Source of the DNA: a virus
IMG/VR virus record: IMGVR_UViG_3300045988_043439
Span: 1 to 58,137 of that record
Length of the DNA: 58,137 nt
Reading direction: 5' to 3' (one strand)
Positions 708 to 56,723 of this stretch are shown here, one piece after another (the stretch's first letter is position 1; every line of letters begins with the position of its first letter). The notes under the pieces are model-generated. The model saw only the letters and a program-made list of their open reading frames with translations. It did no database searches and was not told the DNA's origin. The translations under genes were made by a program, and so were the position numbers.

Positions 708-1469
708 ATGGCAAACATTCAAGTTTTTGAATATCAGAACAGCAAAGTTCGCACGGTTGATATGGACGGCGAAGCATGGTTCGTTCTGAAAGACGTGTGC
801 GCTGTGCTTGGTATTAGCAATAACCGCATGGCTGCTGACCGATTAGATGATGACGAAAAGGGCGTCAGTCTGATTGACACCCTTGGCGGCAAACAGGAAA
901 TGGTGATTGTCAACGAAAGCGGTTTGTACCACGTCATCCTCCGCAGCGACAAGCCAGAAGCAGCACCATTCCGCAGATGGGTCACAAACGATGTACTTCC
1001 TGCAATCCGTAAGACCGGAAGCTACAACGCACCGCAGCTTACCCGCTCGCAGCTCCTTGCAACTGCACTGATCGCAGCGCATGAGGAACTGGAAGAGAAA
1101 GACAAGCAGATTGCAGAACTTACGCCGAAGGGTGTTTTTGCTGACGCAGTGAGCGCAAGCAGCCAAAGCATTCTTGTTGGTGAAATGGCAAAGCTGCTGT
1201 CACAGAACGGCATCCAGATGGGGCAGAATCGTTTGTTCTCATGGCTGCGTGAGAACGGGTACTTGATTAAAGACAAGAAGCGGACAGACTACAATATGCC
1301 GACCCAGAAGTCTATGGAACTTCGCTTGTTTGAAATCAAGGAAACGTCCATTGCGCATTCCGACGGGCACACTTCTATCAATAAGACCCCGAAGGTGACG
1401 GGTATCGGTCAGGTCTATTTCGTTAATCTCTTCTTAAAGACGGAGAAGAGCAAGAAAGTGGAGGACTGA
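708..1469 (+). CDS. Phage antirepressor (Bro-N domain plus KilAC/ANT-type C-terminal domain)
   Basis: N-terminus FEYQNSKVRTVDMDGEAWFVLKDVCAVLGI...NESGLYHVILRSDKPEAAPFRRWVTNDVLPAIRKTGSY is a Bro-N signature. Confidence 0.8.
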   Translation: MANIQVFEYQNSKVRTVDMDGEAWFVLKDVCAVLGISNNRMAADRLDDDEKGVSLIDTLGGKQEMVIVNESGLYHVILRSDKPEAAPFRRWVTNDVLPAIRKTGSYNAPQLTRSQLLATALIAAHEELEEKDKQIAELTPKGVFADAVSASSQSILVGEMAKLLSQNGIQMGQNRLFSWLRENGYLIKDKKRTDYNMPTQKSMELRLFEIKETSIAHSDGHTSINKTPKVTGIGQVYFVNLFLKTEKSKKVED

Positions 1470-14454: not shown

Positions 14455-15093
14455 ATGGACAAAAAACGGGGCAGCTTTACATTTCAGCGATACTACTTTG
14501 AAGCCATCTCCACACTGAAAAGCAAAGAAAAATTGGAGCTCTACGATGCAATCTGTGCATACGTTTTTGAAGAAAAAGACGCGACTTTGAACTCAAAAAA
14601 AGCAGAATCTTGTTTCATTTTGATTAAGCATCTGCTCGATGAAGAATTGAAAAGAAGCGATATTGCGTCAAAAGGATGGTCTACACGAAAGTCAGCTCAT
14701 CCTCATGTCATAAATGAGGTGAAGGTCAGCTCATCTATGAGTTCAAAGTCAGATGACAATGAACCCATTGTATCAGCTGAAGGTCAGATGAGCGTCAAGA
14801 CCTTGCCGGAGAGTGCTGTTAAAAAGAAACCTGACATCTTCTCCGACTTTGCTCATGGCGATAAAGCCCTATTGGAATCCCTGCGAGAGTTCGCGCAGAT
14901 GCGTACAAGAATCAAGAAGCCTATGACAGACCGGGCAAAACAGATGCTCTGCAACAAGCTGGAAAAGTTTGATCGGCATGACTGGAAAGCCATTCTCGAC
15001 CAGAGCATCTATGCTGGATGGCAGGACATTTACGCATTAAAACAGGATGACCAGTACGAGCAAAGTGCGGAGATGGAGTTTCCTAGACTATGA
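14455..15093 (+). CDS. Replication organiser / DnaD-like phage replication protein
   Basis: C-terminus LREFAQMRTRIKKPMTDRAKQMLCNKLEKF...ILDQSIYAGWQDIY is typical of Firmicutes phage replication proteins; overlaps dnaB. Confidence 0.5.
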   Translation: MDKKRGSFTFQRYYFEAISTLKSKEKLELYDAICAYVFEEKDATLNSKKAESCFILIKHLLDEELKRSDIASKGWSTRKSAHPHVINEVKVSSSMSSKSDDNEPIVSAEGQMSVKTLPESAVKKKPDIFSDFAHGDKALLESLREFAQMRTRIKKPMTDRAKQMLCNKLEKFDRHDWKAILDQSIYAGWQDIYALKQDDQYEQSAEMEFPRL

Positions 15094-16295
15094 CAATGGA
15101 CGTTCAAACGGTATTTATCGGTGCGCTGATGCTCTGCAAGCCGGGCGTTGCGGATGAAATCATACCAGACCTTGAACTTGACTTGTTCAGACCTGATCTG
15201 AGAGACGCTTTTGCGGCTGTTCAGGGCTATTGGACGGCTAGGGGTAAGATAGATATAGTCGAGATAAATACGCAGCATCCAGACGTAGCGCAGACGCTCT
15301 TGGCGTGTGTGCAAACCTGTGAATCAGAGTGTGTACGAATTGACAGGGAGCAGATGCAGCGTTGGACGCAGCTTATCAGAGAACAAGCTGCACTTACTCG
15401 TGTGCAAGGTTTGGCATTTCAGATGACCAGCGAGCTTACCGACTATTCTGATCTATCAGACATTTACCAGCAGATGGGCGAAGCAATGAGCCTGAAAGCT
15501 GAGGAAGAAGATGCGTGGACATACGAGGATGTGCTGAACGACTATGTGCTTCACATGGACGAGAAGCCTGTGTACATCAAGACAGGCCTAGAGCGTCTGG
15601 ATGAAGCACTGCACATCTCACCGGGCGATTTCATCATCATCGGCGGCAGACCGTCTGCGGGCAAGACCGCCCTGTCCTTGCAAATAGCAGCAAGCATGGC
15701 AAAGCAGGACTACACTGTGTACTATTTCAGCTTGGAAACTAGCAAACGCAAGCTGGGTGCACGTCTGATGGCTAATCAGATATACTGCCCTTTGGACACG
15801 GTGAAAAATAAGGCGGTCAGCTTGAATGAGATTGACGGGCAGGCAAAGAACATGAAGATGCCCTTATATATCCGCTCCGCTGCCGGAAAAAACGTGGCGT
15901 GGATGAAGGCTCAGGCTCTCCGTAAAAAGGCTCAGGTCATCTTCGTAGACTATCTTCAACTCATCCACGAAACAGGCGCAAAGGACAGATATGCCGCCAT
16001 TACGGCCATATCCATTGCCTTACACGAGCTGGCACAGACCACAGGCATTGTCGTGGTGGCACTTGCACAGCTTAATCGAAACCCATCCAAGCCCGGAGCA
16101 ACGCCTACTAACTCTGACTTGCGAGAGAGTGGGCAGATTGAACAGGACGCAGATGCAATCATCCTTCTGTCCGGAGATAACCCCGACAAGTACCTGTTCC
16201 GGCTAAGCAAGAACAAGGAAGGCGAGATAGGCGACCTTCCCATTACGTTTAACAAGCAGATTCAACGGTTCCAAGAGTATACTTGGATGGATTGA
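15090..16295 (+). CDS. dnaB: DnaB-family replicative helicase
   Basis: Walker A GGRPSAGKTALSLQIA, VIFVDYLQLI, LAQLNRN, DLRESGQIEQDADAIILL. Confidence 0.85.
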   Translation: MTMDVQTVFIGALMLCKPGVADEIIPDLELDLFRPDLRDAFAAVQGYWTARGKIDIVEINTQHPDVAQTLLACVQTCESECVRIDREQMQRWTQLIREQAALTRVQGLAFQMTSELTDYSDLSDIYQQMGEAMSLKAEEEDAWTYEDVLNDYVLHMDEKPVYIKTGLERLDEALHISPGDFIIIGGRPSAGKTALSLQIAASMAKQDYTVYYFSLETSKRKLGARLMANQIYCPLDTVKNKAVSLNEIDGQAKNMKMPLYIRSAAGKNVAWMKAQALRKKAQVIFVDYLQLIHETGAKDRYAAITAISIALHELAQTTGIVVVALAQLNRNPSKPGATPTNSDLRESGQIEQDADAIILLSGDNPDKYLFRLSKNKEGEIGDLPITFNKQIQRFQEYTWMD

Positions 16296-21054: not shown

Positions 21055-21843
21055 TTATACGCTTCTACGGATGCTTGCATAAAGCAGACGGAACGTCTCA
21101 CGGCCTTTCGGCGTTACTCTGGTCTGTACGCCACCGTGCTTGTTCTTCTGGTTACAGTATTCCTTAACAGCAAACAAGCCGTCGCCCTTGCCCGCTTTCG
21201 GCAAGATGCCCTTGCTCTTGTCACGGTAGATGTATCCGTCAGAAATGAGCATCTTGATAAACAGGCGTTCAGGGATACGCAGTTCCTTTGCGGTCGAGCG
21301 GAAATTTGTAGACACGTTCCATGCCACAAGGTCATCGAAGTAGTCGGCTTTGGGCTGCATCTCTTCGTTCTTCTCACAGAGTTGCTTGTTCTGCATTTGC
21401 AACGCTGCACTCTTTTCCTTTTCGGCTTTCATGTTCTGAATCAGCCCGATCACAAAGTCCGGGTTGGCAATAGCCGTCTCCAACAGGTTGTCGGTCATGT
21501 ACATTCCATGCTTGCGGATGGACGGCAAAACCTCGTGAGTGACCCAGTGTTTGAACCGCTGTGCGCTTTCCAGCTTGCTGCTGAAAATCAGACTGTACAG
21601 GCCGGATTCGTTGATGATGGTTGTCTTGCTCTTGTAATTAGAACCATCACCCTGAATCAGGGTAGTGGTTTTATCTTGCTCATCAACGTGTGCTGACAGT
21701 GCGTTCTCAGGCTTTGCGTAGCCAAGTGCTACCGCAATGTCCTTTCCAACAAACCAAGGGTCATCGTCAATGAGCATGACACGGATTTCGCCAAACTCGG
21801 CGTTGTTGAAGATTTTGATGTTCTCAGACAAAGAAAGTTGCAT
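21055..21843 (-). CDS. Second antirepressor (Bro-N plus ANT/KilAC-type C-terminal domain)
   Basis: FGEIRVMLIDDDPWFVGKDIAVALGY...NESGLYSLIFSSKLESAQRFKHWVTHEVLPSIRKHGMY. Confidence 0.8.
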   Translation of the reverse strand: MQLSLSENIKIFNNAEFGEIRVMLIDDDPWFVGKDIAVALGYAKPENALSAHVDEQDKTTTLIQGDGSNYKSKTTIINESGLYSLIFSSKLESAQRFKHWVTHEVLPSIRKHGMYMTDNLLETAIANPDFVIGLIQNMKAEKEKSAALQMQNKQLCEKNEEMQPKADYFDDLVAWNVSTNFRSTAKELRIPERLFIKMLISDGYIYRDKSKGILPKAGKGDGLFAVKEYCNQKNKHGGVQTRVTPKGRETFRLLYASIRRSV

Positions 21844-21861
21844 TAAAAAGCCCCTTTTCAC

Positions 21862-21976
21862 TTGTGAGAGAAGCAATTTTCTGCTATAATAACGGCGAGA
21901 GAATGCTTCTCTCAGGGTTTACATGATACGCTCGCTAAAGTTTGCCGACAGCAGCGAGCGTATCATTTTTCGTTTT
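21862..21976 (+). ncRNA. Candidate ~80-nt antisense sRNA with its own promoter (sar-like) in the RHH-ant intercistronic region
   Basis: TTGTGA (21862)-17 nt-TATAAT (21885); hairpin gagagaa-tgc-ttctctc; perfect 14-bp stem atgatacgctcgct/agcgagcgtatcat plus ttttcgtttt. Confidence 0.3.
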
Positions 21977-22944: not shown

Positions 22945-23709
22945 ATGAAAAACGTAGCTGCTTATATCCGAGTTTCTACCGAAGGGCAATGCGGAGAGGA
23001 CAAATTTGGACTTGAAGCACAAAGGGAACAGATAGAAGAATATTGCAAAAAAAATGACATGAAAATTGTCAAATGGTACACTGATGAAGGTGAATCTGGG
23101 GCAAAGCGTAGGCCGGGCTTTGATAGCATCCTTTACGGAAAAGATGATGTTGAATACGAAGCTGTTGTAGCCGCTAAAAGCGATAGAATTGCTAGAGACA
23201 TCAATGTGTATTTTTGGTACAGGATGGAACTTCTTACTAAAAAGAACGTTTCGCTTATCAGCGTGGCCGAAGATTTTGGAGAATTTGGAGTGTTTTCTGA
23301 TATGTTGAGAACCTTTACAATATGTTGCGCTCAAATGGAAAGAGACAATATAACAAAAAGAACATCTAGCGGAAGAGCAATTAAGGCATCTAATGGCGGT
23401 TATAGCGGTGGAAAAGCACCTATGGGATATAAAGTAAAGGATGGGGCACTCATTATTAACGAAGAGGAAGCAAAAATTGTAAAAAGAGCGTTTGAACTTC
23501 GAGATTCTGGTGAAACGATTCGTTCTGTTGTGAACAAGTTAAACGAAGAGGGTTATCGAGGGAGAAAAGGAAACCCATTTACCATTAGCACCGTTCAATC
23601 TATTCTTAGCAACAGGAAAACGTATGAGGGATATTATCGGTACGGAAAGGATGGCGAGTGGGTTAAAGGTAAGCAGGAACCAATTTTGGAAGAAAAAAAG
23701 GAAGGTTAA
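22945..23709 (+). CDS. Serine recombinase (resolvase catalytic domain plus recombinase domain; only 254 aa)
   Basis: AAYIRVSTEGQ (catalytic Ser), DRIARD, MERDNITKRTSSGR, GGKAPMGYK. Confidence 0.8.
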   Translation: MKNVAAYIRVSTEGQCGEDKFGLEAQREQIEEYCKKNDMKIVKWYTDEGESGAKRRPGFDSILYGKDDVEYEAVVAAKSDRIARDINVYFWYRMELLTKKNVSLISVAEDFGEFGVFSDMLRTFTICCAQMERDNITKRTSSGRAIKASNGGYSGGKAPMGYKVKDGALIINEEEAKIVKRAFELRDSGETIRSVVNKLNEEGYRGRKGNPFTISTVQSILSNRKTYEGYYRYGKDGEWVKGKQEPILEEKKEG

Positions 23710-23710
23710 A

Positions 23711-24295
23711 ATGGAGCGTACTTTTGGCGATATTCAAAATGCAGCGAAAGAATGCGAAAAGAACAACTATGTATATGTTTGGTTTTTCTCTAAAGATGAT
23801 CGCTTTGTCCCCTTTTACGTTGGGATTGGAAGCGATAAAAACAGATGGAAAAACAAAACTTCAAGGAGTAAGACATTTAGAGATTTTGTAAAAAGAAATA
23901 AATGCGTTTCCATGAAAGTCCTAGAGAATCTTGTTTATGAAGTCGCAAGAGAAGTGGAAATAAGAACAAAGAAGAAGTTAGTCGAAAATGGATATTTCAT
24001 TATGGATGCCGAAGATGATTTTGATATGCGCCGCTTGCGTCAGGCAGAGGGCATAGCCGCCATGCCTATTGTTGATGGCAAGAGAGTGTCGGCGAGAACA
24101 GGTCGTAGCTTCGGCAGGCAGGAAAAGCAAGTTGACGAGCAGCAGTTTGAAAGCCTATTAGAGCAACAGCAAAAAGGCAAAATTACCGTAAAAGAGTGCT
24201 GCAAGCAGCTTGGCATCGGGAAATCCACTTGGTATGAGCGTGTCGAAAGATACGCAAATAAAAATAGCGGCAGCCCAACCACAAGCCACCGCTAA
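23711..24295 (+). CDS. GIY-YIG-like nuclease domain protein with a C-terminal resolvase-type HTH
   Basis: YVYVWFFSKDDRFVPFYVGIGS..R..N (GIY-YIG-like); C-terminal ITVKECCKQLGIGKSTWYERV. Confidence 0.45.
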   Translation: MERTFGDIQNAAKECEKNNYVYVWFFSKDDRFVPFYVGIGSDKNRWKNKTSRSKTFRDFVKRNKCVSMKVLENLVYEVAREVEIRTKKKLVENGYFIMDAEDDFDMRRLRQAEGIAAMPIVDGKRVSARTGRSFGRQEKQVDEQQFESLLEQQQKGKITVKECCKQLGIGKSTWYERVERYANKNSGSPTTSHR

Positions 24296-25222: not shown

Positions 25223-27898
25223 ATGCAGCCAAAGCAGTGTATCGCCATCATTGACAGTATCAAAGCGTATGCGAAGCAGAATCCGACCGAAGCACAGGTC
25301 TATGAGGACTGGTTTCAGGCGGTGGTGAACCTGAGAGATGCCCTGCCGCAAGACAAGCGGTTTGATGCCTACAAATACTCTGGAGAGCTGCGCTCTGTCT
25401 GCGCAGCCATGATGGGCAAGATGAAAACAGGCGAGGACGTGGCGAAGGTTTATGACATTATCGGCCGGACGTACCTGTTTGAAGCAAAGGATGTGTTCGA
25501 CAGCTATTGCATCTACCTTGAATGGAACCGTGCGCCGGAAAAGAAGTTCTATCAGCCGAGACGCAGGGTTTTGAAAGTGCTGGCAGATGACCTTGAGGAC
25601 TTGTTTTATAAGCGGATTGACTTCTTGGGAGTTAGTTTGCCCGCTCGCGTCGGCAAGCTTTTGAGTGATGATACGCCAATTCTTACACGAAATGGCTGGA
25701 AGAATCACGGCGATTTACAAGTCGGTGATGAAGTTATCAGCCCAAAAGGTCAGTTTGTGAAGGTGCTGGCAGTATCTCCGAAGAATTATGCAAATATCCG
25801 CTGCCATTTCTCTGACGGCACATACATTGACTGCCATGAAAACCACGAGTGGCCTGTTTACAGCAAACATTCCAATGGGTTCAAAGTGCTTGAAACAAAG
25901 CAAATGATGAATGACTTTGAATCGGGGAAACCGGGACATCGCGGTCATAGATATTTCTATTATTCTCCTGTTTGCAATTTTGTTGAGGGAGAATATAAAA
26001 AGCTACCCGTTGAGCCATACACACTGGGCGCATGGCTTGGCGATGGAACAAATCAAAAGCCCTTGATTTGCGAATCAAAACAGGACAGATGTATTATCGA
26101 AAGAATTGTCAACGACGGATATGCCATCGGGAATTATTACGTCCATAAGACAACAGGGGTAGAATATTTTCATTTTGATGGGCTTCGTGCCGACCTAAAA
26201 AAGATTGATATGTGCTATCGCTCTACTCGTTGTGTGAAGCATATCCCTGAAGAATACTTTACCGCTAGCATTGCACAGCGCATGGAACTGTTGGCTGGTT
26301 TGCTTGATACAGATGGAATGCTAAAAAAAGGCGAAAATAGATATTCTTTTTCTACAACAGAACCGCAGCTCCGCGATGATTTCACTACGCTTGTTTCAAC
26401 ATTCGGTTGGCGTTGCTCTGTAACCAGTTATGCCCCTCGCGTTTCTTCTAGTGGTGTTCATGGGAGAAAAACTGTTTATCGGATTGATTTTAATCCAACT
26501 TGCCCTATCCCTTGCGTTGTTCCTCGTAAACAAATGAAATCGTTCTCCAAACCTCGCCGTGTGGCGTTTTGCGGGTTTGAACGCATCGAGCCGAAGCAGG
26601 GCAACTGCATTCAGGTTGAGGGTGGCGTGTACTGCGCTGGTAAGCGGCTGATTCCCACCCATAACAGTACCTTGTGCATCTTTTTCATCACATGGCTAAT
26701 GGGCAACCGCCCTGACGTTGCATCGGTTATGAGCGGACACTCTGACAAGCTGACCAATGGTTTCTACGGCGAAGTGCTGTCCATCATTACTGACCCTGTG
26801 ACCTACAACTGGGGCAAAATTTTTCCTGACGTTCAGCTTGTGGATAAAAGCGCAAAGGACGAAAGCGTTGACCTGAACCGAAAGAAGCGCTTCCCCACCC
26901 TGACTTGCCGCTCAATCGGCGGTACGCTGACTGGTGCTGTTGAAATCGGCGAGGGCGGCGTTTTGTACAGCGATGACTTGATCGAGGACTTGGAGGAAAG
27001 TCTGAACGTTGAGCGTTTGAACAACAAGTACGATGCCTACCTGAACCAGCTAAAAGACCGCAAAAAGCAAGGCGCATTGGAACTGATGGTCGGTACGCGC
27101 TGGAACGTTCTTGACCCTCTTGGACGCATCCAGAACCAATATGCAGACAATCCGAAGTACCGCTTTCGAGTGATTCCTGCGGTGGACGAGAACGGGCACA
27201 GCAACTTCAATTATGACTATGGCGTTGGGTTTGACGATGCCTACTATGCCGATATGAAAGCCAGCATTGATGATGCAACATGGTGGGCAAAGTACATGGG
27301 CAAGCCCTATGTGCGTGAAGGTCTGCTATTCCCTGCTGATGAACTGCGGTATTTCAACGGTGTTCTGCCTGATGGGGAGCCAGATCGCAAGCTTATGGTC
27401 ATGGATATTGCATGGGGCGGCGGTGACTTCACCGCCTGTCCTATCGCTTATGTGTACGGGGATGCTGTGTTCATCCCTGATCTCGTGTTCAATAACGGCG
27501 ATAAGACCGTAACCAGACCGGAAGTCGTGGGCAAAATCATCCAGCACAAAATTAACGTGGTGCGTGGCGAAGCCAACAACGGCGGCGATGAATATTGTGA
27601 CGTGGTGGACAGCCAGCTCCGGCAGCAGGGCTATCACTGCTCTGTCCGCAGCCAGCGTGCGCCCAGTGGCCAGAGCAAGCTGTCAAGAATCATTCAGTAT
27701 GCGCCAGATATCAAACGGTTCTATTTCCTTGACGAAAAACACCAGTCAAAAGAGTACAAGGCGTTCATGGAACAGGTCACGATGTTCACGCAGCTTGGCA
27801 AAGTTCCGCACGATGATGCACCGGATAGTCTGGCTCAGCTTGCCGATGAATTGTATAACGGAATCAGTAAAATTGAGCCTGTCAAGAGGCCTTTTTGA
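25223..27898 (+). CDS. terL: Terminase large subunit, interrupted by an intein (extein about 555 aa)
   Basis: Walker A LPARVGK//ST is restored when 25658-26665 is removed; the C-terminal nuclease-type region is acidic. The start is uncertain because the RBS is poor. Confidence 0.85.
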   Translation: MQPKQCIAIIDSIKAYAKQNPTEAQVYEDWFQAVVNLRDALPQDKRFDAYKYSGELRSVCAAMMGKMKTGEDVAKVYDIIGRTYLFEAKDVFDSYCIYLEWNRAPEKKFYQPRRRVLKVLADDLEDLFYKRIDFLGVSLPARVGKLLSDDTPILTRNGWKNHGDLQVGDEVISPKGQFVKVLAVSPKNYANIRCHFSDGTYIDCHENHEWPVYSKHSNGFKVLETKQMMNDFESGKPGHRGHRYFYYSPVCNFVEGEYKKLPVEPYTLGAWLGDGTNQKPLICESKQDRCIIERIVNDGYAIGNYYVHKTTGVEYFHFDGLRADLKKIDMCYRSTRCVKHIPEEYFTASIAQRMELLAGLLDTDGMLKKGENRYSFSTTEPQLRDDFTTLVSTFGWRCSVTSYAPRVSSSGVHGRKTVYRIDFNPTCPIPCVVPRKQMKSFSKPRRVAFCGFERIEPKQGNCIQVEGGVYCAGKRLIPTHNSTLCIFFITWLMGNRPDVASVMSGHSDKLTNGFYGEVLSIITDPVTYNWGKIFPDVQLVDKSAKDESVDLNRKKRFPTLTCRSIGGTLTGAVEIGEGGVLYSDDLIEDLEESLNVERLNNKYDAYLNQLKDRKKQGALELMVGTRWNVLDPLGRIQNQYADNPKYRFRVIPAVDENGHSNFNYDYGVGFDDAYYADMKASIDDATWWAKYMGKPYVREGLLFPADELRYFNGVLPDGEPDRKLMVMDIAWGGGDFTACPIAYVYGDAVFIPDLVFNNGDKTVTRPEVVGKIIQHKINVVRGEANNGGDEYCDVVDSQLRQQGYHCSVRSQRAPSGQSKLSRIIQYAPDIKRFYFLDEKHQSKEYKAFMEQVTMFTQLGKVPHDDAPDSLAQLADELYNGISKIEPVKRPF
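25658..26665 (+). mobile_element. Intein (336 aa) with an embedded LAGLIDADG homing endonuclease; class-3-like WCT signature
   Basis: Begins LLSDDTPIL (no Cys/Ser1) and ends IPTHN/S. Block B HENHEW, block F GNCIQVEG. LAGLIDADG motifs LGAWLGDG and LAGLLDTDG. Confidence 0.8.
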
Positions 27899-28320: not shown

Positions 28321-28398
28321 GTTGCATTAGCTCAGTTAGGCTAGAGCATCCGGCTCATAACCGGACATACATTGGTTCAAATCCATTATGCAGCACCA
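28321..28398 (+). tRNA. tRNA with anticodon CAT (Met, fMet or Ile2), CCA encoded
   Basis: Hand-folded: gttgcat/atgcagc acceptor, gctc/gagc D-stem, tccgg-ctCATaa-ccgga, attgg-ttcaaat-ccatt, then A-CCA. Confidence 0.8.
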
Positions 28399-42160: not shown

Positions 42161-42492
42161 GCTATCAAAAGCAGAACTTTGCAAACGGCGAAGTGCTTAC
42201 CGCTCCGCAGCTGAACCACATTGAGGACGGCATTGTGGATTTGGAGAGCAATTCAAACACTACGCTTGCTGGCAAAGCAGATAAATCAGAAGTGCAAGCG
42301 AACGCGAAAAGCATTTCCGATGAAACCACCCGCGCCAAGGGCGAAGAGCAGCGCTTGGATACCGCCATCACCGCCGAAACCGCTCGCGCGGAACAGGCAG
42401 AGCAAGCGCTGGATACGCGCACCGCAGCCCTCGAATCTTGCGGATTTGTCGTTGTAGACGGCAAAATCTGCGTGAAATATGTCAAACGCTGA
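42157..42492 (+). CDS. Tail-fibre-associated coiled-coil protein
   Basis: N-terminus QNFANGEVLTAPQLNHIEDGI is common in fibre proteins, followed by a coiled coil. Confidence 0.45.
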   Translation: MSYQKQNFANGEVLTAPQLNHIEDGIVDLESNSNTTLAGKADKSEVQANAKSISDETTRAKGEEQRLDTAITAETARAEQAEQALDTRTAALESCGFVVVDGKICVKYVKR

Positions 42493-42506
42493 AAGGAGCA
42501 AAACAC

Positions 42507-43790
42507 ATGACTGATAACACTGAGACTGTAGCTGCAGCGGCAACTCTCGTAACCGAGCCTCCCTATCTGGACAAGACCGCAAAAGACAATGGCAAAAAGC
42601 TTGACCAGATGACCGCCGCCCTGCTGGGTATGTCCAGCTCGCTGGGCGTGATCGCGCGGGCACAGACCGGCGTGGTGGAGGAGATGGACTATAACGGCAT
42701 CAAGGCCGTGGTGGCTGCCGGTAACGCACCGGCGGTTTTCCCGGTGGGCACCCAGCTTGTCAACACCTACACCGGCAAGGACGGCAAAGTCTACGACTGC
42801 CCGTGGGACGTGGTAAAGACGGACGATATCGCCGAGGGTGAGACCGGCACCACCGCACCCGCAATGGTGCTGCAGATGCACTACGCATCTCTGGAAGATA
42901 TCCAGTTTTCCGCATATCAGGCCTTTTTCGTTGTGCCGGAGGCTGGCCTTGTGGCTGGCGCCTACAACGTCAAGATGGGGCTGGACTGGGGCAGCAACGT
43001 AAAGACTGGTACCGTCTACCAGTTTACTCTGACCAAGAACGCCCCTGCAGGCGCACGCCTGACCGGCTTCTATAATGCACCGGACGTTGCGCCCGCAAAC
43101 TGGAAGGTCTACGTCTACAAGGATCGGATGAAGTCCGAGCTGCTGGAGACCTGCAACGTGACCGCCGGTGATGCTGGCACGAACCTCGGCACGTTCCTCG
43201 CAAAACCCAACGGCAACCTGAACGGCTTGCACCCCGTTGGCTACGGCGACAACCGGTGGTGGAAGTCCGCGTATCGTCAGTACCTCAACAGCGATGCACC
43301 CGCTAAAGAGTGGTGGGCTCCGCAGGACGAGTGGGACATGAAACCCGATCAGGCAGACACCGTGCCCGGCTTCCTTGCGGGCTTCTCTGATGACTTCAAG
43401 GCTGCCCTGACCCGCGTGAAGGTCGTGACCTACGGCAACACCGTCACCGATGACGGCAGCGCTGTGGTGACCTATGACAAGATTTTCCTGCCCTCGCTGC
43501 AGGAGATCTACTGCTCGCCGCAGGTGTCTGGCGAGGGCACCGGCTACTGGCCTTACTGGAAAGAGCGCACCGGCGCAAAGACCCCGCAGGCTCTGTGGCA
43601 GACCTACCCGCTGCGCATCACCCGCGATCTGGCACAGCGTACTGTGGGCCGCCGTGTGCGGCTGCGCTCTGCGTATCGTGGCGGCGGCAACGATGCCTTC
43701 TACGTGGGCTCCAGCGGCGGCGTCTACGGCTGGAGCGCGGTCGGCGCGGGTCGCTGCGCCCCGGCTTGCGAAATGACCAATCTTAAATAA
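42507..43790 (+). CDS. DGR target: receptor-binding / tail-fibre protein with a C-terminal variable region
   Basis: RBS GAAAGGAG; the last ~45 codons are the VR (RLRSAYRGGGNDAFYVGSSGGVYGWSAVGAGRCAP). Confidence 0.8.
   Translation: MTDNTETVAAAATLVTEPPYLDKTAKDNGKKLDQMTAALLGMSSSLGVIARAQTGVVEEMDYNGIKAVVAAGNAPAVFPVGTQLVNTYTGKDGKVYDCPWDVVKTDDIAEGETGTTAPAMVLQMHYASLEDIQFSAYQAFFVVPEAGLVAGAYNVKMGLDWGSNVKTGTVYQFTLTKNAPAGARLTGFYNAPDVAPANWKVYVYKDRMKSELLETCNVTAGDAGTNLGTFLAKPNGNLNGLHPVGYGDNRWWKSAYRQYLNSDAPAKEWWAPQDEWDMKPDQADTVPGFLAGFSDDFKAALTRVKVVTYGNTVTDDGSAVVTYDKIFLPSLQEIYCSPQVSGEGTGYWPYWKERTGAKTPQALWQTYPLRITRDLAQRTVGRRVRLRSAYRGGGNDAFYVGSSGGVYGWSAVGAGRCAPACEMTNLK
43644..43768 (+). repeat. DGR variable repeat (VR)
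   Basis: Aligns with 44267-44391; by hand count all 22 mismatches fall at TR adenines. Confidence 0.85.
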
Positions 43791-43791
43791 T

Positions 43792-43815
43792 CACCGGGCA
43801 ATCCCTTGCCCGGTG
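43792..43815 (+). promoter_or_regulatory. GC-rich hairpin just 3' of the VR (DGR homing-enhancer-like)
   Basis: caccgggcaa-tccc-ttgcccggtg: perfect 10-bp stem, 4-nt loop, no T-run. Confidence 0.6.
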
Positions 43816-43834
43816 AGAAAGTGAGTGCTATCCC

Positions 43835-44245
43835 ATGGCAATGCGTAAAGACCAGATACCGGACAATAAATTCACGCTGCCGCTTGACGCGCGTGAGCTG
43901 GCACTGTATACCAGACAGATCACCAAAAACGCGAAAGTGTTTGACCTCGAAATTGACGCAAGCCTTCCCGGTCAACTGCGCGCTACGGCAGACCGGATAT
44001 TTTTTGATATCTTCGGAGCAAACGACCTCCGGCTGGACAAGCCGAACGAAAGAGAGGAGCGCTTTAAGCTTCAAAGGCACGCCGTCCGGCTGTGCACCGT
44101 CCTTTTGGCGGAGATAGACATGGCAAAAGCCAGCTACCACCTTTCTGGCAAACGGTGCTCTTTCTGGGGCAACACTGTGCGCGATATCCGGCAGCGTTGC
44201 CGGGACTGGCACGAGAGTGATGCAAAGCGTGCAAAAGCGCTTTGA
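43835..44245 (+). CDS. avd: Accessory variability determinant (Avd-like helical bundle protein)
   Basis: 136 aa, basic and helical; sits between the target gene and the TR, as in BPP-1. Confidence 0.7.
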   Translation: MAMRKDQIPDNKFTLPLDARELALYTRQITKNAKVFDLEIDASLPGQLRATADRIFFDIFGANDLRLDKPNEREERFKLQRHAVRLCTVLLAEIDMAKASYHLSGKRCSFWGNTVRDIRQRCRDWHESDAKRAKAL

Positions 44246-44266
44246 CATAAAAATGGCTGTAGGCTA

Positions 44267-44391
44267 ATGGGCCGCAATGTGCGGCTGCGCTCTGCGAATC
44301 GTGGCAACGGCAACAATGCCTTCAACGTGAACTCCAGCGGCAACGTCAACAACTGGAACGCGATCAACGCGAATCGCTGCGCCCCGGATTG
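44267..44391 (+). repeat. DGR template repeat (TR), rich in AAC codons
   Basis: tgggccgcAAtgtgcggctgcgctctgcgAAtcgtggcAAcggcaacAAtgcc...; non-coding despite the ORF-track entry 44267-44563. Confidence 0.85.
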
Positions 44392-44547
44392 GACGGCAGC
44401 ACGCCCACAAAAGCCCCTGCATAGCAGAGGCCGGGCAAAAACTGCCGTGCAAGGAGCCGAGTGCCATGTCTGTCCTCTGGCAGACGAACAATATCAGCCG
44501 GACGTGGCCACCCTGCGGGGTGTTGACCGCTATCACCCGGCAGATCC

Positions 44548-45612
44548 TTGCGAGGAGAGCTGAAAAAATCAGTGCAAGAAGAAGAAATAATAATCGGGTT
44601 CGATGCCCTGTATAATTCCGAGGGCAAGTGCGCCAAAGGCGTGTGCCGCAAGGCAAGCGTTGGACGGTTTCACCTGTTTCGGATGGACGAGATCCTGAAA
44701 CTCCAAAAGGAGCTCGCGACAGGTACATACAAGGCACGGCCAACAATCAAAGTTAGAATCACCTATCCCAAGCCCCGCACAGCGGTTGCGAATGGCTTTC
44801 GGGATAGGGTATACCAGCGCTCTCTCAACGACAATGCTGTTTATCCAGCAATGACACGGAGCTTCATCCGGCAAAACGCGGCCTGTCAGACCGGCAAAGG
44901 TACCGACTGGGCGCGCAAGCAGGTCAAGCTCATGATGGAGCGCGAATACCGGCAGCACGGCGCTGATGGCTATGTGCTGTTGGTAGATATCCGGCACTAT
45001 TACGACACGATGCCCCATGACGTGGCAAACCGCTGCTTTGAGCGGCATCTGCCGCCAAGTGTGCATAACCGCGTGCGTGAGGTGCTGGATCGTCAATATA
45101 CCGGCGAGGCCGGTTATAATCCGGGCAGCCAGATGGTGCAGCTTGCCGGGATCTCGGTGCCCGACCCCATAGATCACTACATCAAGGAGCGCCTGCGGGC
45201 GAAAAAGTACGTCCGTTTTATGGATGATAGCCTCATCATCCACCACGACAAGGCGCAGCTTGAGGAGTGGCGGGAGGCGATCCGCGCCCGGTACGCTGCC
45301 GATGGCATGGAGCTGCACCCGACCAAGACCAAGATCGTCAGACTAAAGGATGGATTCCGTTTTCTAGGTTTCATCTACCGCCTGACCCCGGCGGGCAAGG
45401 TCGTTATGACCGTTGACCCGCAGAACGTCAAGGCCGAGCGCAAGCGCCTGTTTCGGCTTGCCCAGCTCATCAAGGCAGGAGAGAAACCGGTATCTGCCCT
45501 GTATGAGCAGTATGGATCATGGAAAGCCCATGCCGCTAAAGGCAACTCGCAGCAGCTGCTGCAGCGCATGGATCAATACGTTAAAACTCTGCTGGAGGGG
45601 ATAACGACATGA
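44548..45612 (+). CDS. DGR reverse transcriptase (start codon uncertain; the ORF track uses TTG)
   Basis: RT motifs: PKPRTAVANGFRDRVYQ, VLLVDIRHYYD, NPGSQMVQLAG, YVRFMDDSLII (YxDD box), KTKIV...FLGF. Confidence 0.9.
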   Translation: MRGELKKSVQEEEIIIGFDALYNSEGKCAKGVCRKASVGRFHLFRMDEILKLQKELATGTYKARPTIKVRITYPKPRTAVANGFRDRVYQRSLNDNAVYPAMTRSFIRQNAACQTGKGTDWARKQVKLMMEREYRQHGADGYVLLVDIRHYYDTMPHDVANRCFERHLPPSVHNRVREVLDRQYTGEAGYNPGSQMVQLAGISVPDPIDHYIKERLRAKKYVRFMDDSLIIHHDKAQLEEWREAIRARYAADGMELHPTKTKIVRLKDGFRFLGFIYRLTPAGKVVMTVDPQNVKAERKRLFRLAQLIKAGEKPVSALYEQYGSWKAHAAKGNSQQLLQRMDQYVKTLLEGITT

Positions 45613-52194: not shown

Positions 52195-52752
52195 TTATTC
52201 CCAAAGTACAGATTTGGCTTTTATGTCAAATAAGTCTTGCGGATGGAATACAAGGCTCTTATCAAGCTCAACTATGCCAACGATGGAGAATTTGCCGGGA
52301 ACTTCTCGCTGGATTTTCGCCTTTGCTTCTTCTTTGCTGTTTGCAAACAAAACGAACGGAGTTTGGAAGTGTCTGCATTTTTCGTCATCATCGTACTGGA
52401 TTTTGACCCAATAAAAGTTTTCACCCCCTACTTCTTTCGGTGTTAAGTATTTTTTGACACTTGAAACATCGTAAGTGCAATACCCGATACACTGCGGGTT
52501 TCCGTATTTCTCCATAAAATTGTCGTTCCCAATACGAGTTGCCAAAACCATGTGAACGTCTTTCCAACCAACACGGTCATCATTGACCGGTTTATCGTCC
52601 ATAACAATATCATCAGGGTCTATCACTTTCTTGCCAATCGCCAAATTCCAATTATTTGCAATATAATGTGTCATCTGATACCAGTTGTCAAATGTTTTTA
52701 CTTCTTTCATGGCATCTTCCAAAGAACCACGATGAGGTCTATAAACAATCAT
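52195..52752 (-). CDS. Hypothetical protein
   Basis: 185-aa ORF; no motif recognised. Confidence 0.5.
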   Translation of the reverse strand: MIVYRPHRGSLEDAMKEVKTFDNWYQMTHYIANNWNLAIGKKVIDPDDIVMDDKPVNDDRVGWKDVHMVLATRIGNDNFMEKYGNPQCIGYCTYDVSSVKKYLTPKEVGGENFYWVKIQYDDDEKCRHFQTPFVLFANSKEEAKAKIQREVPGKFSIVGIVELDKSLVFHPQDLFDIKAKSVLWE

Positions 52753-52755
52753 ACG

Positions 52756-53328
52756 TCAATCCTCCAAGAAATCCTCCAATTCAATCTTTCCTTCTGCCGC
52801 CGCAACTGCCAAAGCGTACACGAACTGTCCAATCGTCATTCCGTGCCGTCTAGCTTCACGGTTGATGTACTTGCGTTCTTCCTCGCTCATAAGGATGGTA
52901 ATGCGCTTGGAACGCTTGCCATCACCGCTTGCAACACCCTGATGCGATTCCGGCATCGGGATTTTTTTCTTTGTCAAGCCAGCTTCGGCTAGCGCGCCGG
53001 GAACATCGCCTTGTTCGATAAGGCGCTGAACTTCTTTCGCCTGTTTCAGCTTCTTCGGCTTACTTTCGCTTACTACGGCATTGTTCGGCTGTGTTCCGCT
53101 GTCTTTGGCTTGCTTCGGCTTAATACTGCTTAACTGTGCTTCATTAGGCTGTGTAGGGCTGTCTGTGACTTCACTGTGCTTAATCTGTGCTTGTTCGGCT
53201 TCGTTCGGCTTTGCTTGGCTTACTTCTTCTTCCTTTGGCTCACTTCGGCTTAATGTCTGTTCCGAAAAAATAGGCTGAAAATCAAACCCGCCAAGCAGAC
53301 CTGAGGATTTTTTGCTGGTTGATTTCAT
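52756..53328 (-). CDS. Ribbon-helix-helix partition partner (ParG/CopG-like) with a repetitive low-complexity N-terminus
   Basis: C-terminus KRITILMSEEERKYINREARRHGMTIGQFVYALAVAAA fits RHH; ATGA-coupled to parA. Confidence 0.6.
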   Translation of the reverse strand: MKSTSKKSSGLLGGFDFQPIFSEQTLSRSEPKEEEVSQAKPNEAEQAQIKHSEVTDSPTQPNEAQLSSIKPKQAKDSGTQPNNAVVSESKPKKLKQAKEVQRLIEQGDVPGALAEAGLTKKKIPMPESHQGVASGDGKRSKRITILMSEEERKYINREARRHGMTIGQFVYALAVAAAEGKIELEDFLED

Positions 53329-54095
53329 CAGCCTTCACCTCCGACAATATGTTGCGCCAACGCCTTGAAATCCTCTGCGCTGGTGCTCTTTGCCGTGTCA
53401 CCGCTAAACAAGCTGTGCCGTTCTGCCTGAGCCTTACGGACGCCCATAGACGGTCTAATCTTCACGTCCAGCAGGGTTGTGCCCATGCTCTGCGCAATCA
53501 CAGGAAGCTGCTCCACAACCTCTTTGGACAGGTTCTCACGGCTCTTGTACTGGTTCAGAAGCAATCCTTCAATCTTCAAAGTCGGATTGAAATATCTGCG
53601 AACATCGCCGATGGTCTGCGAAAGCTGGCTCAAACCAGCCAGTGCGTATCGGTCTGCTGTGATGGGGACGATAATGCTGTTGGCGGCGATCAGTGCGTTC
53701 ACAAGCGCAAGGCCAAGCTGCGGGGGAGTGTCCAGCACAATGTAATCGTACTGACCAGACACGCTTTCAAGGGCTTCTCGCAGCCGGAAGTTTTTGCCCA
53801 TGTCCCTGACAAGCTGCTCGTCAATGTCCTTCAATGCGTTGTCGGACGGCAGAATGTCACCAGCTTCACAGTGCTGGATTCCTTCTTCGACCGTTCCCTG
53901 CCGGGTCATCACGTCAAACAGGGTGCATACGTCCTCTGTCTGTGCCCCGTAGGTGTCCGTTGCGTTGCACTGGGCATCGCAGTCCACCAGCAGGACTTTC
54001 TTGCCAAGCAACTGCAACGCACCAGCCAGACAGGTGCTTGTTGTGGTCTTTCCTGTGCCACCCTTTTGGTTGGCGACCGCTATGATTTTTGCCAT
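53328..54095 (-). CDS. parA: ParA/Soj-family partition ATPase
   Basis: MAKIIAVANQKGGTGKTTTS deviant Walker A; VLLVDCDAQCN; YDYIVLDTPP. Confidence 0.9.
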   Translation of the reverse strand: MAKIIAVANQKGGTGKTTTSTCLAGALQLLGKKVLLVDCDAQCNATDTYGAQTEDVCTLFDVMTRQGTVEEGIQHCEAGDILPSDNALKDIDEQLVRDMGKNFRLREALESVSGQYDYIVLDTPPQLGLALVNALIAANSIIVPITADRYALAGLSQLSQTIGDVRRYFNPTLKIEGLLLNQYKSRENLSKEVVEQLPVIAQSMGTTLLDVKIRPSMGVRKAQAERHSLFSGDTAKSTSAEDFKALAQHIVGGEG

Positions 54096-54112
54096 TTTAT
54101 CACTCTTTCTTT

Positions 54113-54394
54113 TTAGTAAAACGGATATGCTGCTTTTATCTCGTCTCCGACCCACAACACAGGCGTGACGTGCCATGCAATTACGGTTCCTTTGATCTCA
54201 TTGCTATCGGAATCAAACCATTTGCCGTTGATTGTATCGTACTCTCCGATTATGAAACTTTTTTCTCCTGTTTTCTTATCTTCGATACAAAGTAAAAGCC
54301 CATGTGGCCATCTTTCTAGGCTTTTATCCGGCATAACATCTTTAGTCATGTACCACTTGTCCTTGTCATAGCCTTTCGGAAACATCGGAATCAT
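54113..54394 (-). CDS. Hypothetical protein
   Basis: Start set at MIPMFPKG behind AAGGAG. Confidence 0.4.
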   Translation of the reverse strand: MIPMFPKGYDKDKWYMTKDVMPDKSLERWPHGLLLCIEDKKTGEKSFIIGEYDTINGKWFDSDSNEIKGTVIAWHVTPVLWVGDEIKAAYPFY

Positions 54395-54430
54395 ACTCTT
54401 TCTCCTTTCTTTATAATGCATTATATCTGA

Positions 54431-55528
54431 CTACTTTTGCAGTGCGTCAATCTCATAAAATGCCGGAAGATACTCTTCAATCGCGCCGTCTTTCTTCAAG
54501 CTACCAATCAGATACCGCTTCGGATGGTCAGGCCAGGGGTCACGGTTGATTGAAAGAATATCCGCACACGCAGCCTTTACGATGTCATAGACCGCATCTC
54601 TCCGCTTCGGCAGCTTGATAGATGGGTGTTCTTCCATCATCTTTACCTCGACAACCTTTGCAACCTCGATGCACTCTTGAACGGATAGAGCATCGCACAC
54701 AGACCAGTCGTACCCTTCGTATCCGCTTGTGCGGGGCTTTCTGGCGGCTTTTTTGATTTCCGGCTTGGAGGAATTAGCCGCCTCACAATCAACTTCGCTA
54801 GAATCGGCGTCTATGACGGGCTGCTTGGATTTGTACCCGAATCGAAACTCAACTGCTACTACCTTTCGCCCTGTGCAAATCTTTTCAAAGTCAACGACAA
54901 TGTCTGAAACATTGCTGATCTCTTCCACCGCTGGTTCAAGAACTCTGCGGCGTAAAGCCCGGAAATCGTCATAACTTGCATCGTTTGCCCCCAAGTGGTC
55001 ACGCAGCTGCTTCAAACCAATCTTGTTCGATGTTAGAGAGCGATTCATCCAATCTCGAATCATGCTGTACATCAGAATAGATGCTTGCTGTTTCATCCCA
55101 ATCGTATAGCGCAGACGGTATTTGACGTAGCCGCTTCTTGCAATGTCGAAAAACACAGGCCGCAAGTCAGGATTACAGTTGATTGAAACGTCATAGGACA
55201 AGGATTCTCGATTGTACTTGACCTCTGCCTTTGTGAACAGCGGATACATCACATATTCTGTTCCATCTGCATTCAGTGGTACTGAAACCACGTTGCCCAA
55301 AAAGTGCTTAACCTGCGACTTCAAGTTCTTTGAATTGAGCTTCAAATCCAGCAGTTTGCAATATTCAGCCAGCGTAAACGACACGTTAGAGCTTTCGGGA
55401 TCTCTCGGATTGATACGGCTCAGATAGACCTCAAGCAGCCGAAGCTCGCCTGCTGTGTAGTCCGTAAACTTCGCCCAAACCAATGCCTTGCTCTTTTCGA
55501 CAAGGTTGTTTCCTGTCAATTCTGGCAT
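54431..55528 (-). CDS. Plasmid replication initiator (RepB/Rep_3-like)
   Basis: N-terminus NLVEKSKALVWAKFTDYTAGELRLLEVYLSRINPRDP... is typical of iteron-type initiators; the iteron array lies immediately upstream. Confidence 0.7.
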   Translation of the reverse strand: MPELTGNNLVEKSKALVWAKFTDYTAGELRLLEVYLSRINPRDPESSNVSFTLAEYCKLLDLKLNSKNLKSQVKHFLGNVVSVPLNADGTEYVMYPLFTKAEVKYNRESLSYDVSINCNPDLRPVFFDIARSGYVKYRLRYTIGMKQQASILMYSMIRDWMNRSLTSNKIGLKQLRDHLGANDASYDDFRALRRRVLEPAVEEISNVSDIVVDFEKICTGRKVVAVEFRFGYKSKQPVIDADSSEVDCEAANSSKPEIKKAARKPRTSGYEGYDWSVCDALSVQECIEVAKVVEVKMMEEHPSIKLPKRRDAVYDIVKAACADILSINRDPWPDHPKRYLIGSLKKDGAIEEYLPAFYEIDALQK

Positions 55529-55561
55529 TGCATCACCTCATTTCTTCTACCCTATTATACC

Positions 55562-55790
55562 ACTGTATCGTGTACACGTCAACGATTCTGTACACAATTA
55601 TTTTTTCAACAATCGACTTCCACATTTTGTACACAATACTCCATTTTTTGTACACGATACTCTCCACTTCTTGTACACGTTATTCCACTTTATGTACACA
55701 ATGCTCCACTTTTTGTACACGTTCTTACTATATATATAAACAAGAGATAAACAAGAGATAAATAATCATCATCAAATAGTGACGACGATA
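55562..55790. repeat. Plasmid-type origin: 7 TGTACAC-core iterons (5 in 21-23-bp tandem phase) plus an AT-rich stretch with 2x AAACAAGAGATA
   Basis: TGTACAC at 55571, 55589, 55628, 55649, 55672, 55693, 55714; consensus CCAC(T)TTNTGTACAC(R)(W)T. Confidence 0.8.
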
Positions 55791-55894
55791 CATTTTCAAC
55801 AATTTCTTTTCTTCAACGGACAGATTGTTGAAAACGACAACTCTTTTTGCTGAATAAGAAACGTCCATCAAGCCCTATAACCTATCTGACGGTT

Positions 55895-56085
55895 CTATCG
55901 TGTACAGAAAATGGGGTGCAATCACACTAATAGGGAACGAATTGACAAGTCACGCTTTGATGAACGAAAATTTCACGCGAGTTCGTTAATTACATCTGCA
56001 AAAATCCACCATTTACGATTCTATGGGGGACAAAATGACAACCCAAAACCATATTTATAACAGGCCTATTGTGTACAAAAAGTGG
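55895..56085. repeat. Two inverted copies of the Rep iteron
   Basis: ctatcgtgtacagaaaatgg (55895-55914) and ctattgtgtacaaaaagtgg (56066-56085) are reverse complements of the iteron consensus. Confidence 0.55.
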
Positions 56086-56129
56086 AGCGCGTCCCCCTGT
56101 ATACCGTAAAAACTTCGATAACTCGACAA

Positions 56130-56723
56130 TCAACCGCTTATATTATTTGGATTAACGGTATAGGAATCATTGGACTTCATAGCAGCTTCCGTTCCAGCAT
56201 CCTGCGCCTGATAGAGAATCTCCATCTTTGGGGCGGTTCCATTCGGGTCTGGGTCAGTTCCGGTGGCCTGTGCCATCTCATAGCTACCAGACACCATCCG
56301 GCAAACAGAAACCCTGTCCTTTAACGGCGTGTGGAGGTTTGCCAGAATCTCCGTCAACACGCCGATGTGGTCTGAGCCGTGATCTCCGTACCGGATGTAT
56401 AACAAGGCATCTATCTCATAGGAGGAACACTCCATCATAGCATCTATGAGAATCCGCCGTTTCTCCAAATCGGAAAGGTCATCTTCCAGATGTTCCAGCA
56501 GTCCCGGATGAATGCAAGCGTCCATGTATCGAGCCACCGATACGCCGCAGCAGGTGAACCAGCGCATAGCCATCGGAAGGGAAATGGCTGCAAGACCTTG
56601 CTCCCAATTGGCGACCGTTCCACGATTCACACCCATTTTTGCCGCCAATTTCTGCTGGCTCAAGCCGGAACACATTCGAGCTATCTCTAATGCTTTGGCT
56701 GTTCTCACTAAATATTCATCCAT
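56130..56723 (-). CDS. XRE-family HTH regulator with a C-terminal domain
   Basis: LEIARMCSGLSQQKLAAKMGVNRGTVANWEQG. Confidence 0.65.
   Translation of the reverse strand: MDEYLVRTAKALEIARMCSGLSQQKLAAKMGVNRGTVANWEQGLAAISLPMAMRWFTCCGVSVARYMDACIHPGLLEHLEDDLSDLEKRRILIDAMMECSSYEIDALLYIRYGDHGSDHIGVLTEILANLHTPLKDRVSVCRMVSGSYEMAQATGTDPDPNGTAPKMEILYQAQDAGTEAAMKSNDSYTVNPNNISG

Follow-up and report, generated by a model that had tools for sequence, protein, structure and literature searches.

A probable class 3 intein with a LAGLIDADG endonuclease domain in the Walker A motif of a gut-phage terminase large subunit

Introduction

Why does the gene for the terminase large subunit (TerL) of an uncultured human-gut phage of ~57 kb carry 336 extra codons in the middle of its predicted Walker A loop? 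The gene lies in IMG/VR virus record IMGVR_UViG_3300045988_043439, from which we analyzed positions 1 to 58,137, a stretch of 58,137 nucleotides that we refer to as the window and to which all coordinates apply. A sequence-only reading of the window had proposed that the insert, at 25658-26665, is a class 3 intein carrying a LAGLIDADG endonuclease. Class 3 inteins are defined by a residue 1 that is non-nucleophilic, which is usual but not obligatory, and that co-varies with a Trp-Cys-Thr (WCT) triplet and with Ser or Thr at position +1 (PMC2807308). Here we ask whether the boundaries, the splicing residues, the endonuclease and the host protein agree with that proposal, and how the insert behaves among related phages. 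We conclude, with a probability of about 0.88, that 25658-26665 is a bifunctional class 3 intein in which a HINT splicing domain is split by a LAGLIDADG endonuclease, and that it sits in Walker A of the only recognizable TerL of this phage.

Results

Natural intein-less alleles fix both boundaries of the insert

The TerL precursor gene occupies 25223..27898 on the plus strand and encodes 891 amino acids plus a stop. The open reading frame (ORF) could begin at a TTG at 25169 or an ATG at 25223. Because all homologues start at the ATG (MQPKQC...), which is shared by proteins of 555 and of 891 amino acids, position 25223 is almost certainly the true start, with the TTG disfavored, giving a precursor of 891 amino acids. 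Within this single ORF (25169/25223-27898), 25658-26665 on the plus strand is a stop-free translation of 336 amino acids (LLSDDTPILT...KRLIPTHN) placed between Lys145 and Ser146 of the Walker A loop, LPARVGK/STLC, where the slash marks the junction. It is preceded by ...LGVSLPARVGK and followed by STLCIFF.... The precursor is thus divided into an N-extein of 145 amino acids that ends in the first half of Walker A (25223..25657, +), an intein of 336 amino acids running from Leu1 to Asn336 (25658..26665, +), and a C-extein of 410 amino acids plus stop (26666..27898, +). The C-extein opens with Ser+1 (AGT, 26666-26668), which is the Walker A serine, and also contains Walker B (LLYSDDL) and an RNase H-like nuclease domain. 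The GC content of the intein is 44.5%, as compared with 50-51% in both exteins.

The sequence-only reading had claimed that removal of the 336 codons restores a clean P-loop and had suggested a search for intein-less TerL alleles to define the site. Such alleles exist in nature and are that exact deletion. When we searched with a virtual spliced TerL, 117 of the 120 best matches were 555-amino-acid TerLs (555 = 891-336) at 96-100% identity, and the remaining three were two 891-amino-acid intein-bearing clusters and one protein of 554 amino acids. The 555-amino-acid alleles read ...PARVGKSTLC... across the junction and are collinear with the exteins of the window, their residues 1-145 with the N-extein and 146-555 with the C-extein. 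At the DNA level, three intein-less loci were collinear with the joined exteins with zero indels. Since natural alleles correspond to an exact 336-codon deletion, both intein boundaries are fixed, and since these alleles exist, TerL works without the insert. The exact 891-amino-acid sequence was found on 7 public metagenome contigs. The public label of this protein is merely "terminase large subunit-like", none of the 1735 member sequences in its 90% cluster is annotated as intein-containing, and no public source names the intein.

The insert carries the class 3 splicing signature

In a phmmer search of the insert against all PDB chains, the top matches were class 3 DnaB1 inteins, namely 6BS8 of M. 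smegmatis (Msm; E=5e-9) and 6RIX/6RIY of M. chimaera (Mch; 5.5e-8 for 6RIX). Residues 2-67 and 312-336 of the insert aligned to these inteins with all three signature positions in register. Against 6BS8, HEW falls on HQW, NCIQVE falls on RCVEVD, and both proteins end in PTHN; over the C-terminal part, NCIQVEG..GVYCAGKRLIPTHN aligns to RCVEVDNpeHLYLAGPGMVPTHN, with Cys317 on Cys118 of 6BS8. The N-lobe of the HINT domain (residues 1-105; 25658..25972, +) aligns to residues 2-69 of the Msm DnaB intein and contains block A (LLSDDTPILT) and block B (CHENHEWPV, 25832-25858, +), the latter with His63 at 25844-25846 and Trp65 at 25850-25852 in HENHEW. The C-lobe (residues 296-336; 26543..26665, +), aligned to the C-terminal part of 6BS8, contains block F (GNCIQVEGGVYCAG, 26600-26641, +) with Cys317 at 26606-26608 in GNCIQVE, and block G (RLIPTHN, 26645-26665, +) with Thr334-His335-Asn336 at 26657-26665.

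These residues are conserved well beyond the window. Database proteins matching the insert at E<=1e-3 numbered 672, and in an alignment of 53 intein homologues (29-91% identical) His63 (B:10), Trp65 (B:12), Cys317 (F:4), Thr334 (G:5), His335 and Asn336 were invariant (53/53). Among 59 full-length homologues, which have TerLs, dCTP-deaminase-like proteins and mycobacteriophage proteins among their hosts, the insertion nearly always comes immediately after a P-loop GK, and W, C and T-H-N are retained. The +1 residue is Ser or Thr in nearly all homologues and Ser in the window. The WCT triplet that the sequence-only reading had picked out in HENHEW, GNCIQVE and PTHN therefore stands, with every position present and invariant and with class 3 inteins as the closest structures, and the THN end followed by Ser+1 is as that reading had described it.

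We also modeled the intein with AlphaFold2 from the 53-sequence alignment, which gave a mean predicted local distance difference test score (pLDDT) of 96.7 and a predicted template modeling score (pTM) of 0.93. In Foldseek searches against the PDB, the model retrieved class 3 DnaB inteins at 28-34% identity over its HINT part and, over the whole chain, PI-SceI (E=8e-18, query TM-score (TMq) 0.72), TliVMA, PhoVMA and PI-PfuI. Judged by its sequence, the insert has all the features of a class 3 intein.

Leu1 is ordinary for this intein family

The window intein begins with Leu (CTT) and lacks the usual Cys or Ser nucleophile at position 1. This had been remarked on before and proved to be both real and recurrent. 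Position 1 in the 53-sequence alignment is Ala in 24, Leu in 15, Gln, Glu and Ser in 4 each and Lys in 1, and in more distant TerL inteins the first residue can also be Arg or Phe. Leu1 (CTT TTG) and Ala1 (GCT TTG) alleles coexist at this TerL site with the TTG unchanged, and Leu1 occurs in two intein lineages that share just 79% identity. Given that position 1 varies, is mostly non-nucleophilic and has Leu as its second commonest residue, Leu1 is ordinary for this family.

A PI-SceI-like endonuclease domain interrupts the splicing domain

The middle of the intein (residues ~106-295; 25973..26542, +) is predicted to have a PI-SceI-like LAGLIDADG homing endonuclease fold that retains the catalytic residues, based on the Foldseek match to PI-SceI, the aligned catalytic positions and Pfam LAGLIDADG_3. 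Block C (LGAWLGDG, 26024-26047, +) supplies Asp129, block D (VKHIPEEYF, 26234-26260, +) Lys194, and block E (LAGLLDTDG, 26291-26317, +) Asp219. Direct alignment to PI-SceI placed D129, K194 and D219 on D218, K301 and D326, of which D218 and D326 are the two catalytic aspartates of PI-SceI and K301 its active-site lysine. The three residues are conserved in 51-53 of the 53 homologues. Over the endonuclease core, Foldseek also matched I-DmoI at about 1e-4. On the insert alone, Pfam LAGLIDADG_3 scored 23.4 bits against a cut-off of 22.5, and Hom_end scored 20.0 against a cut-off of 21.1, just below threshold. The two LAGLIDADG motifs that had been noted from the letters, LGAWLGDG and LAGLLDTDG, are thus borne out as parts of a domain whose confident model resembles PI-SceI.

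The host protein is a terminase with a T7-like nuclease domain, split between Lys145 and Ser146

The spliced protein matched phrog_38, "terminase large subunit", at E=5e-55, and Pfam PF22530 matched the C-extein, which fits the nuclease domain. A phmmer search of the PDB with the spliced TerL alone returned noise-level matches only, and T7 gp19 was reached only with a profile. This profile was built from 12 diverse TerL sequences that are 32-43% identical and that all carry this intein family at the same site. It matched T7 gp19 (E=6e-8) and the nuclease domain of T4-type gp17, and it placed LslPprvGKStlalF on the T7 gp19 P-loop segment LQAFRGIGKSFITCAF (FRGIGKSF) weakly, with a domain independent E-value (i-E) of 16. 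G144-K145-S146, a hydrophobic-D248-D249 motif and T289 are invariant in the 12 TerLs. G144-K145, D248-D249 and T289 follow one another in the order and at the spacing expected of the Walker A, Walker B and coupling motifs of TerL ATPases, as in T4 gp17. The earlier assignment of the host as TerL and of the site as the GK/S of Walker A is upheld by the phrog_38 match and the invariant motif residues.

The surroundings of the gene form a standard morphogenesis block, with tRNA-Met, portal, capsid, tape measure, tail and lysin genes, and the window otherwise encodes a complete phage. Among its large ORFs, we saw no other TerL. The tRNA-Met (CAT) gene lies at 28321-28398, between TerL and the portal gene. 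A contig scan for the host found just two distant relatives (62-67% identity), one in a Bacillota metagenome-assembled genome and one on a 4-kb contig binned as Bacteroidales; the phage probably has a Bacillota host.

The intein is under purifying selection and is younger than the gene that carries it

To characterize the intein in its population, we compared IMG/VR alleles of this TerL, 76 intein-less and 54 intein-bearing, on contigs of ~30-60 kb from human-gut samples. IMG/VR contains roughly 600 TerL alleles in all. The intein-less alleles were taken from the 80 top-scoring protein matches, a single IMG data set supplied most of the contigs, and the statistics below ignore shared ancestry. 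Intein reading frames are intact in >70 independent IMG/VR contigs of near-complete genome length. The exteins differ by ~8% at the DNA level in almost every pair, nearly all of it synonymous, and the proteins are 97-100% identical, with a synonymous divergence (dS) of 0.35-0.46 and a ratio of nonsynonymous to synonymous divergence (dN/dS) of 0.002-0.015. The intein as a whole has a dN/dS of 0.04-0.18, with values of 0-0.26 for its N-lobe and 0-0.16 for its endonuclease domain. Across intein lineages the C-lobe has a dN of 0-0.011, zero in 11 of 16 comparisons, a dS of 0.07-0.8 and a dN/dS of 0-0.07. The splicing lobes and the endonuclease domain are all under purifying selection. Linkage along the TerL gene is essentially nil (window versus L001-L083). 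This, taken with the ~8% synonymous divergence and the near-identical TerL proteins, shows that the phage population is very large and recombines freely.

Two observations bear on mobility. In the same genome pairs, window-type inteins have a dS of 0.07-0.24 as compared with 0.35-0.46 for the exteins, or 0.38-0.44 for the exteins of genomes with window-type inteins, and because the intein value is the lower, the common ancestor of the intein copies is more recent than that of the genes that carry them. Additionally, we calculated the mutual information between extein single-nucleotide polymorphisms and intein state along the gene. It was highest from about -30 to +29, with peaks at +1, +2, +6 and +15, was modestly raised to about -90 upstream, and fell to background from +30 downstream. 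This delimits two putative homing-site halves of ~30 nucleotides of extein on each side of the intein (25628..26694, +, comprising 25628-25657 and 26666-26694). The clearest difference is the Ser+1 codon, which is AGY in 49 of 49 unique intein-bearing alleles and TCN in 40 of 64 unique intein-less alleles, and many of the TCN-type alleles also use AAA for Lys-1. Junctions of intein-less alleles thus include AAG/AGTACG (for example L001 10001-11668) as well as AAA/TCGACG and AAG/TCCACG (for example L036 and L004). The known intein-less alleles in IMG/VR all differ from the window at synonymous sites near the junction. Since the intein-linked extein variants cluster at the junction, this pattern points to the footprint of a homing endonuclease, which may consist of short co-conversion tracts, of recoded intein-less survivors, or of both. 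Intein-less alleles with recoded sites are possibly resistant to the endonuclease.

The same site holds further variation. At least four intein lineages (336 or 334 amino acids; 76-99% identical) occupy the TerL site of this phage group (L084-L141), and they are mosaic: L086 has a dS of 0.008 in the endonuclease domain and of 0.8 in the C-lobe. In some relatives (L096, L101-L107), the N-extein is divergent (...QPPRTGK) and shares only 87% DNA identity with the window, whereas the C-extein is as similar as in any other (93%), a pattern that suggests recombination breakpoints in TerL at or near the intein.

Other features of the phage

Elsewhere in the window, a complete diversity-generating retroelement spans 42438-45612. 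Its reverse transcriptase ORF is at 44548-45612 (phrog_1423, E=2e-68), its template repeat at about 44268-44391, and its variable repeat at about 43645-43768, in the 3' end of a 450-amino-acid ORF (42438-43790) that follows a tail protein gene. The repeats differ by ~21 mismatches, all of which change a template A to a variable non-A. A plasmid-like prophage state is suggested by minus-strand genes within 52195-56723, which include one for a partition protein of the ParA type (53328-54176), one for a replication initiator (54431-55528) and one that is repressor-like (56130-56723). Two Ant-type anti-repressor genes are present, at 708-1469 (+) and 21055-21876 (-), matching phrog_130 at E=5e-97 and 6e-77. 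In 20000-44000 of the window, nucleotide similarity to cultured phages is confined to a 123-bp stretch of an ant gene of Lactobacillus phage Lv-1. Upstream of TerL, the ORF of a serine recombinase (22945-23709, +) runs into a second ORF that resembles a resolvase (23624-24295, +). The overlapping pair may represent one gene that has been frameshifted or rearranged; in relatives, a single resolvase of 218 amino acids lies upstream of TerL. A DnaB-like helicase gene (401 amino acids, phrog_19; 15090-16295) is intein-free, though DnaB-type P-loops are a classic target of this intein family.

Discussion

A model for splicing and homing

We propose the following model, in which the splicing pathway is taken from published work on class 3 inteins (PMC2807308, PMC5222942, PMC7664689). 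TerL would be translated as an 891-amino-acid precursor with a split P-loop, in which ATP binding would be impaired. With His63 activating it and Trp65 and Thr334 holding it in position, Cys317 (F:4) would attack the Lys145-Leu1 bond to form a branched thioester at block F, and the N-extein would then be transferred to the hydroxyl of Ser+1. Cyclization of Asn336 would release the intein, and an O-to-N acyl shift would yield the 555-amino-acid TerL with an intact ...ARVGKST... loop. Leu1 would be a bystander in these steps, as residue 1 provides no nucleophile in class 3. By analogy, the precursor would be inactive as an ATPase, and packaging would therefore depend on splicing; a P-loop intein in RadA is reported to disrupt ATPase function (cited in PMC6195587). 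We hypothesize that the endonuclease of the excised intein probably cuts intein-less TerL during co-infection or prophage-phage encounters, with repair copying the intein in. Homing of this kind would explain the patchy distribution of the intein in recombining gut phages.

Evidence against a bifunctional class 3 intein and alternative explanations

Several points weigh against the assignment of a bifunctional class 3 intein. A Pfam scan (E<=1) of the precursor and of the insert matched no Hint or Intein_splicing model, and the only intein-related models that it returned were those for the endonuclease, LAGLIDADG_3 just above its cut-off and Hom_end just below. The location in Walker A of TerL is derived from the motif, the order of the motifs and the weak alignment to T7 gp19 rather than from a structure. 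An empty site built from the window's own flanks (GCTCGCGTCGGCAAG+AGTACCTTGTGCATC) had 0 matches in IMG/VR. For Leu at position 1, we found no splicing data in the papers that we consulted. Finally, the branched intermediate, splicing and DNA cleavage are activities that we infer for this intein from its sequence.

With these points in mind, we weighed other accounts of the insert. The intein might splice while its endonuclease is dead. Vertical inheritance and general recombination would then maintain it, since precise excision from an essential P-loop seldom occurs. We consider this unlikely, although the subthreshold Hom_end score and the missing empty site with the window's flanks count in its favor, and the population recombines so freely that ordinary recombination could move the intein. 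A dead domain should drift or shrink to leave a mini-intein, and this one retains D129, K194 and D219 in nearly all homologues and has a dN/dS no higher than 0.16. The intein is also younger than its host gene, and the intein-less alleles are enriched in synonymous recoding right at the junction, with TCN in place of AGY at Ser+1.

Two further accounts deny the class 3 route or deny splicing altogether. Splicing by another route, which we regard as very improbable, could follow class 1 with the boundary shifted to Ser3, two residues into the insert, or class 2 (KlbA-type) with direct attack by Ser+1 and no Cys317 intermediate, given that class 2 inteins likewise have no nucleophile at position 1. 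A class 1 intein needs Cys, Ser or Thr at position 1, where the window has Leu, and the boundary is fixed. A shifted N-terminal boundary with a canonical nucleophile had been named in advance as an outcome that would overturn the class 3 proposal. A boundary at Ser3 would leave a product reading GKLL/ST; it is contradicted by the natural intein-less alleles, which define the exact junction and all read GK/ST. Class 2 inteins have Ala1 and Cys+1 and no WCT (PMC2807308), whereas this intein has Leu1, Ser+1 and invariant W65, C317 and T334, and its nearest solved relatives are class 3 inteins. Even harder to credit is that the element does not splice at all. It would then be a decayed intein of the kind seen in Arthrobacter Arth_1007, an insertion domain that TerL has domesticated and tolerates, or a mark of defective phages. 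An inactive class 3-like intein is on record (PMC3196547), but Arth_1007 lacks Cys F:4 and His B:10, both of which are present and invariant here. A 336-residue domain within GK/S is incompatible with nucleotide binding. Moreover, >70 contigs of near-complete genome length have intact frames that are under strong purifying selection, and apart from the insert the window encodes a complete phage. We therefore favor a class 3 intein that both splices and homes.

Whether splicing could also be regulated is a separate matter. We speculate that the intein might act as a conditional switch, in which oxidation or zinc reversibly traps the TerL precursor and restricts packaging to a reduced cytoplasm. 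The idea arises because splicing would start from a thiol (Cys317) and the splicing lobes hold further cysteines, and it draws on an analogy with DnaBi1 (PMC6195587). Cys49 lies on the strand that holds the regulatory Cys48 in the Msm DnaB class 3 intein, and Cys59 adjoins block B and is common to 18 of the 53 homologues. Msm Cys48 itself is unaligned with any Cys of the window intein, the nearest, Cys49, being three positions off. We consider such a switch improbable.

Significance

The finding leaves knowledge of intein mechanisms and of terminases unchanged, and its value lies in annotation, population biology and protein engineering. Because the intein is unnamed publicly and is missed by the Pfam splicing models, TerLs that have it and TerLs that lack it are handled as distinct proteins in gene calling and protein clustering. 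For biology, near-complete gut-phage genomes are available by the dozen in both intein-bearing and intein-less form, and they make up a natural, densely sampled population in which to follow the class 3 homing cycle, and the same locus offers several intein lineages at one site along with recoded target sites. For protein engineering, it provides a class 3 family in which residue 1 varies among Leu, Gln, Glu, Lys, Arg and Phe.

Comparison with known inteins

By sequence, the closest solved relatives are the Msm and Mch DnaB1 inteins (DnaBi1; 6BS8, 6RIX and 6RIY). They share with the window intein the WCT triplet, His B:10, the C-terminal THN, a non-nucleophilic residue 1 and insertion directly after a P-loop GK (SVGK/A... 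in Mch DnaB). They differ in that they are mini-inteins of 139-145 amino acids with Ala1 and no endonuclease in a bacterial replicative helicase, whereas the window intein has Leu1 and a 190-amino-acid LAGLIDADG domain and is hosted by a phage terminase. The prototype of class 3, the DnaB intein of mycobacteriophage Bethlehem, is a nearer match in architecture, as it is a full-length phage intein (341 amino acids, as compared with 336 here) with a reported homing endonuclease (PMC2807308). It likewise has a non-nucleophilic residue 1, a Trp two residues past the block B His, a Cys ~20 residues from the C-terminus and Thr or Ser at +1 (PMC2807308). The Bethlehem intein resides in another host protein and has Pro1 in place of Leu1, and its splicing through the block F cysteine has been shown biochemically. 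The branched intermediate at block F has been demonstrated for this intein and for the D. radiodurans Snf2 intein.

The best whole-protein structural match, PI-SceI (the yeast VMA1 intein), has the same HINT plus LAGLIDADG architecture, with the equivalents of Asp218, Lys301 and Asp326 kept in the window intein. In contrast to the window intein, it belongs to class 1 (Cys1 nucleophile, Cys+1), has 454 amino acids with an extra DNA-recognition region, and shows ~14% identity to the window intein.

Terminases are established hosts for inteins. In one survey, mycobacteriophage TerLs are described as having inteins at seven sites, including a Lys/Thr P-loop site and class 3 members; splicing is reported for several of the actinobacteriophage TerL inteins, and cleavage of intein-less alleles for two (PMC5050341). 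The survey describes TerL1-a/b as "classic" P-loop insertions between the invariant Lys and the Thr after it, in the ATPase domain of TerL as here, and places the class 3 inteins that it names, TerL1-c/d/e, at sites (a helix, Walker B) other than the Walker A site of the window (PMC5050341). A 2025 survey adds 287 further class 3 inteins in actinophages (bioRxiv 10.1101/2025.01.02.630785). The window TerL belongs to a different terminase family from those of actinobacteriophages, with a T7-like nuclease domain (PF22530), and comes from an uncultured gut phage that is probably one of Bacillota and not an actinophage. Because the 2010 paper that defined class 3 had already reported such inteins in large terminase subunits, for the most part in the P-loop (PMC2807308), the window intein is not a new kind. 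It adds one member to a known kind, and what is new relative to the earlier cases is the uncultured gut-phage host, the terminase family with its T7-like nuclease domain and the Leu1/Ala1 polymorphism at a single site.

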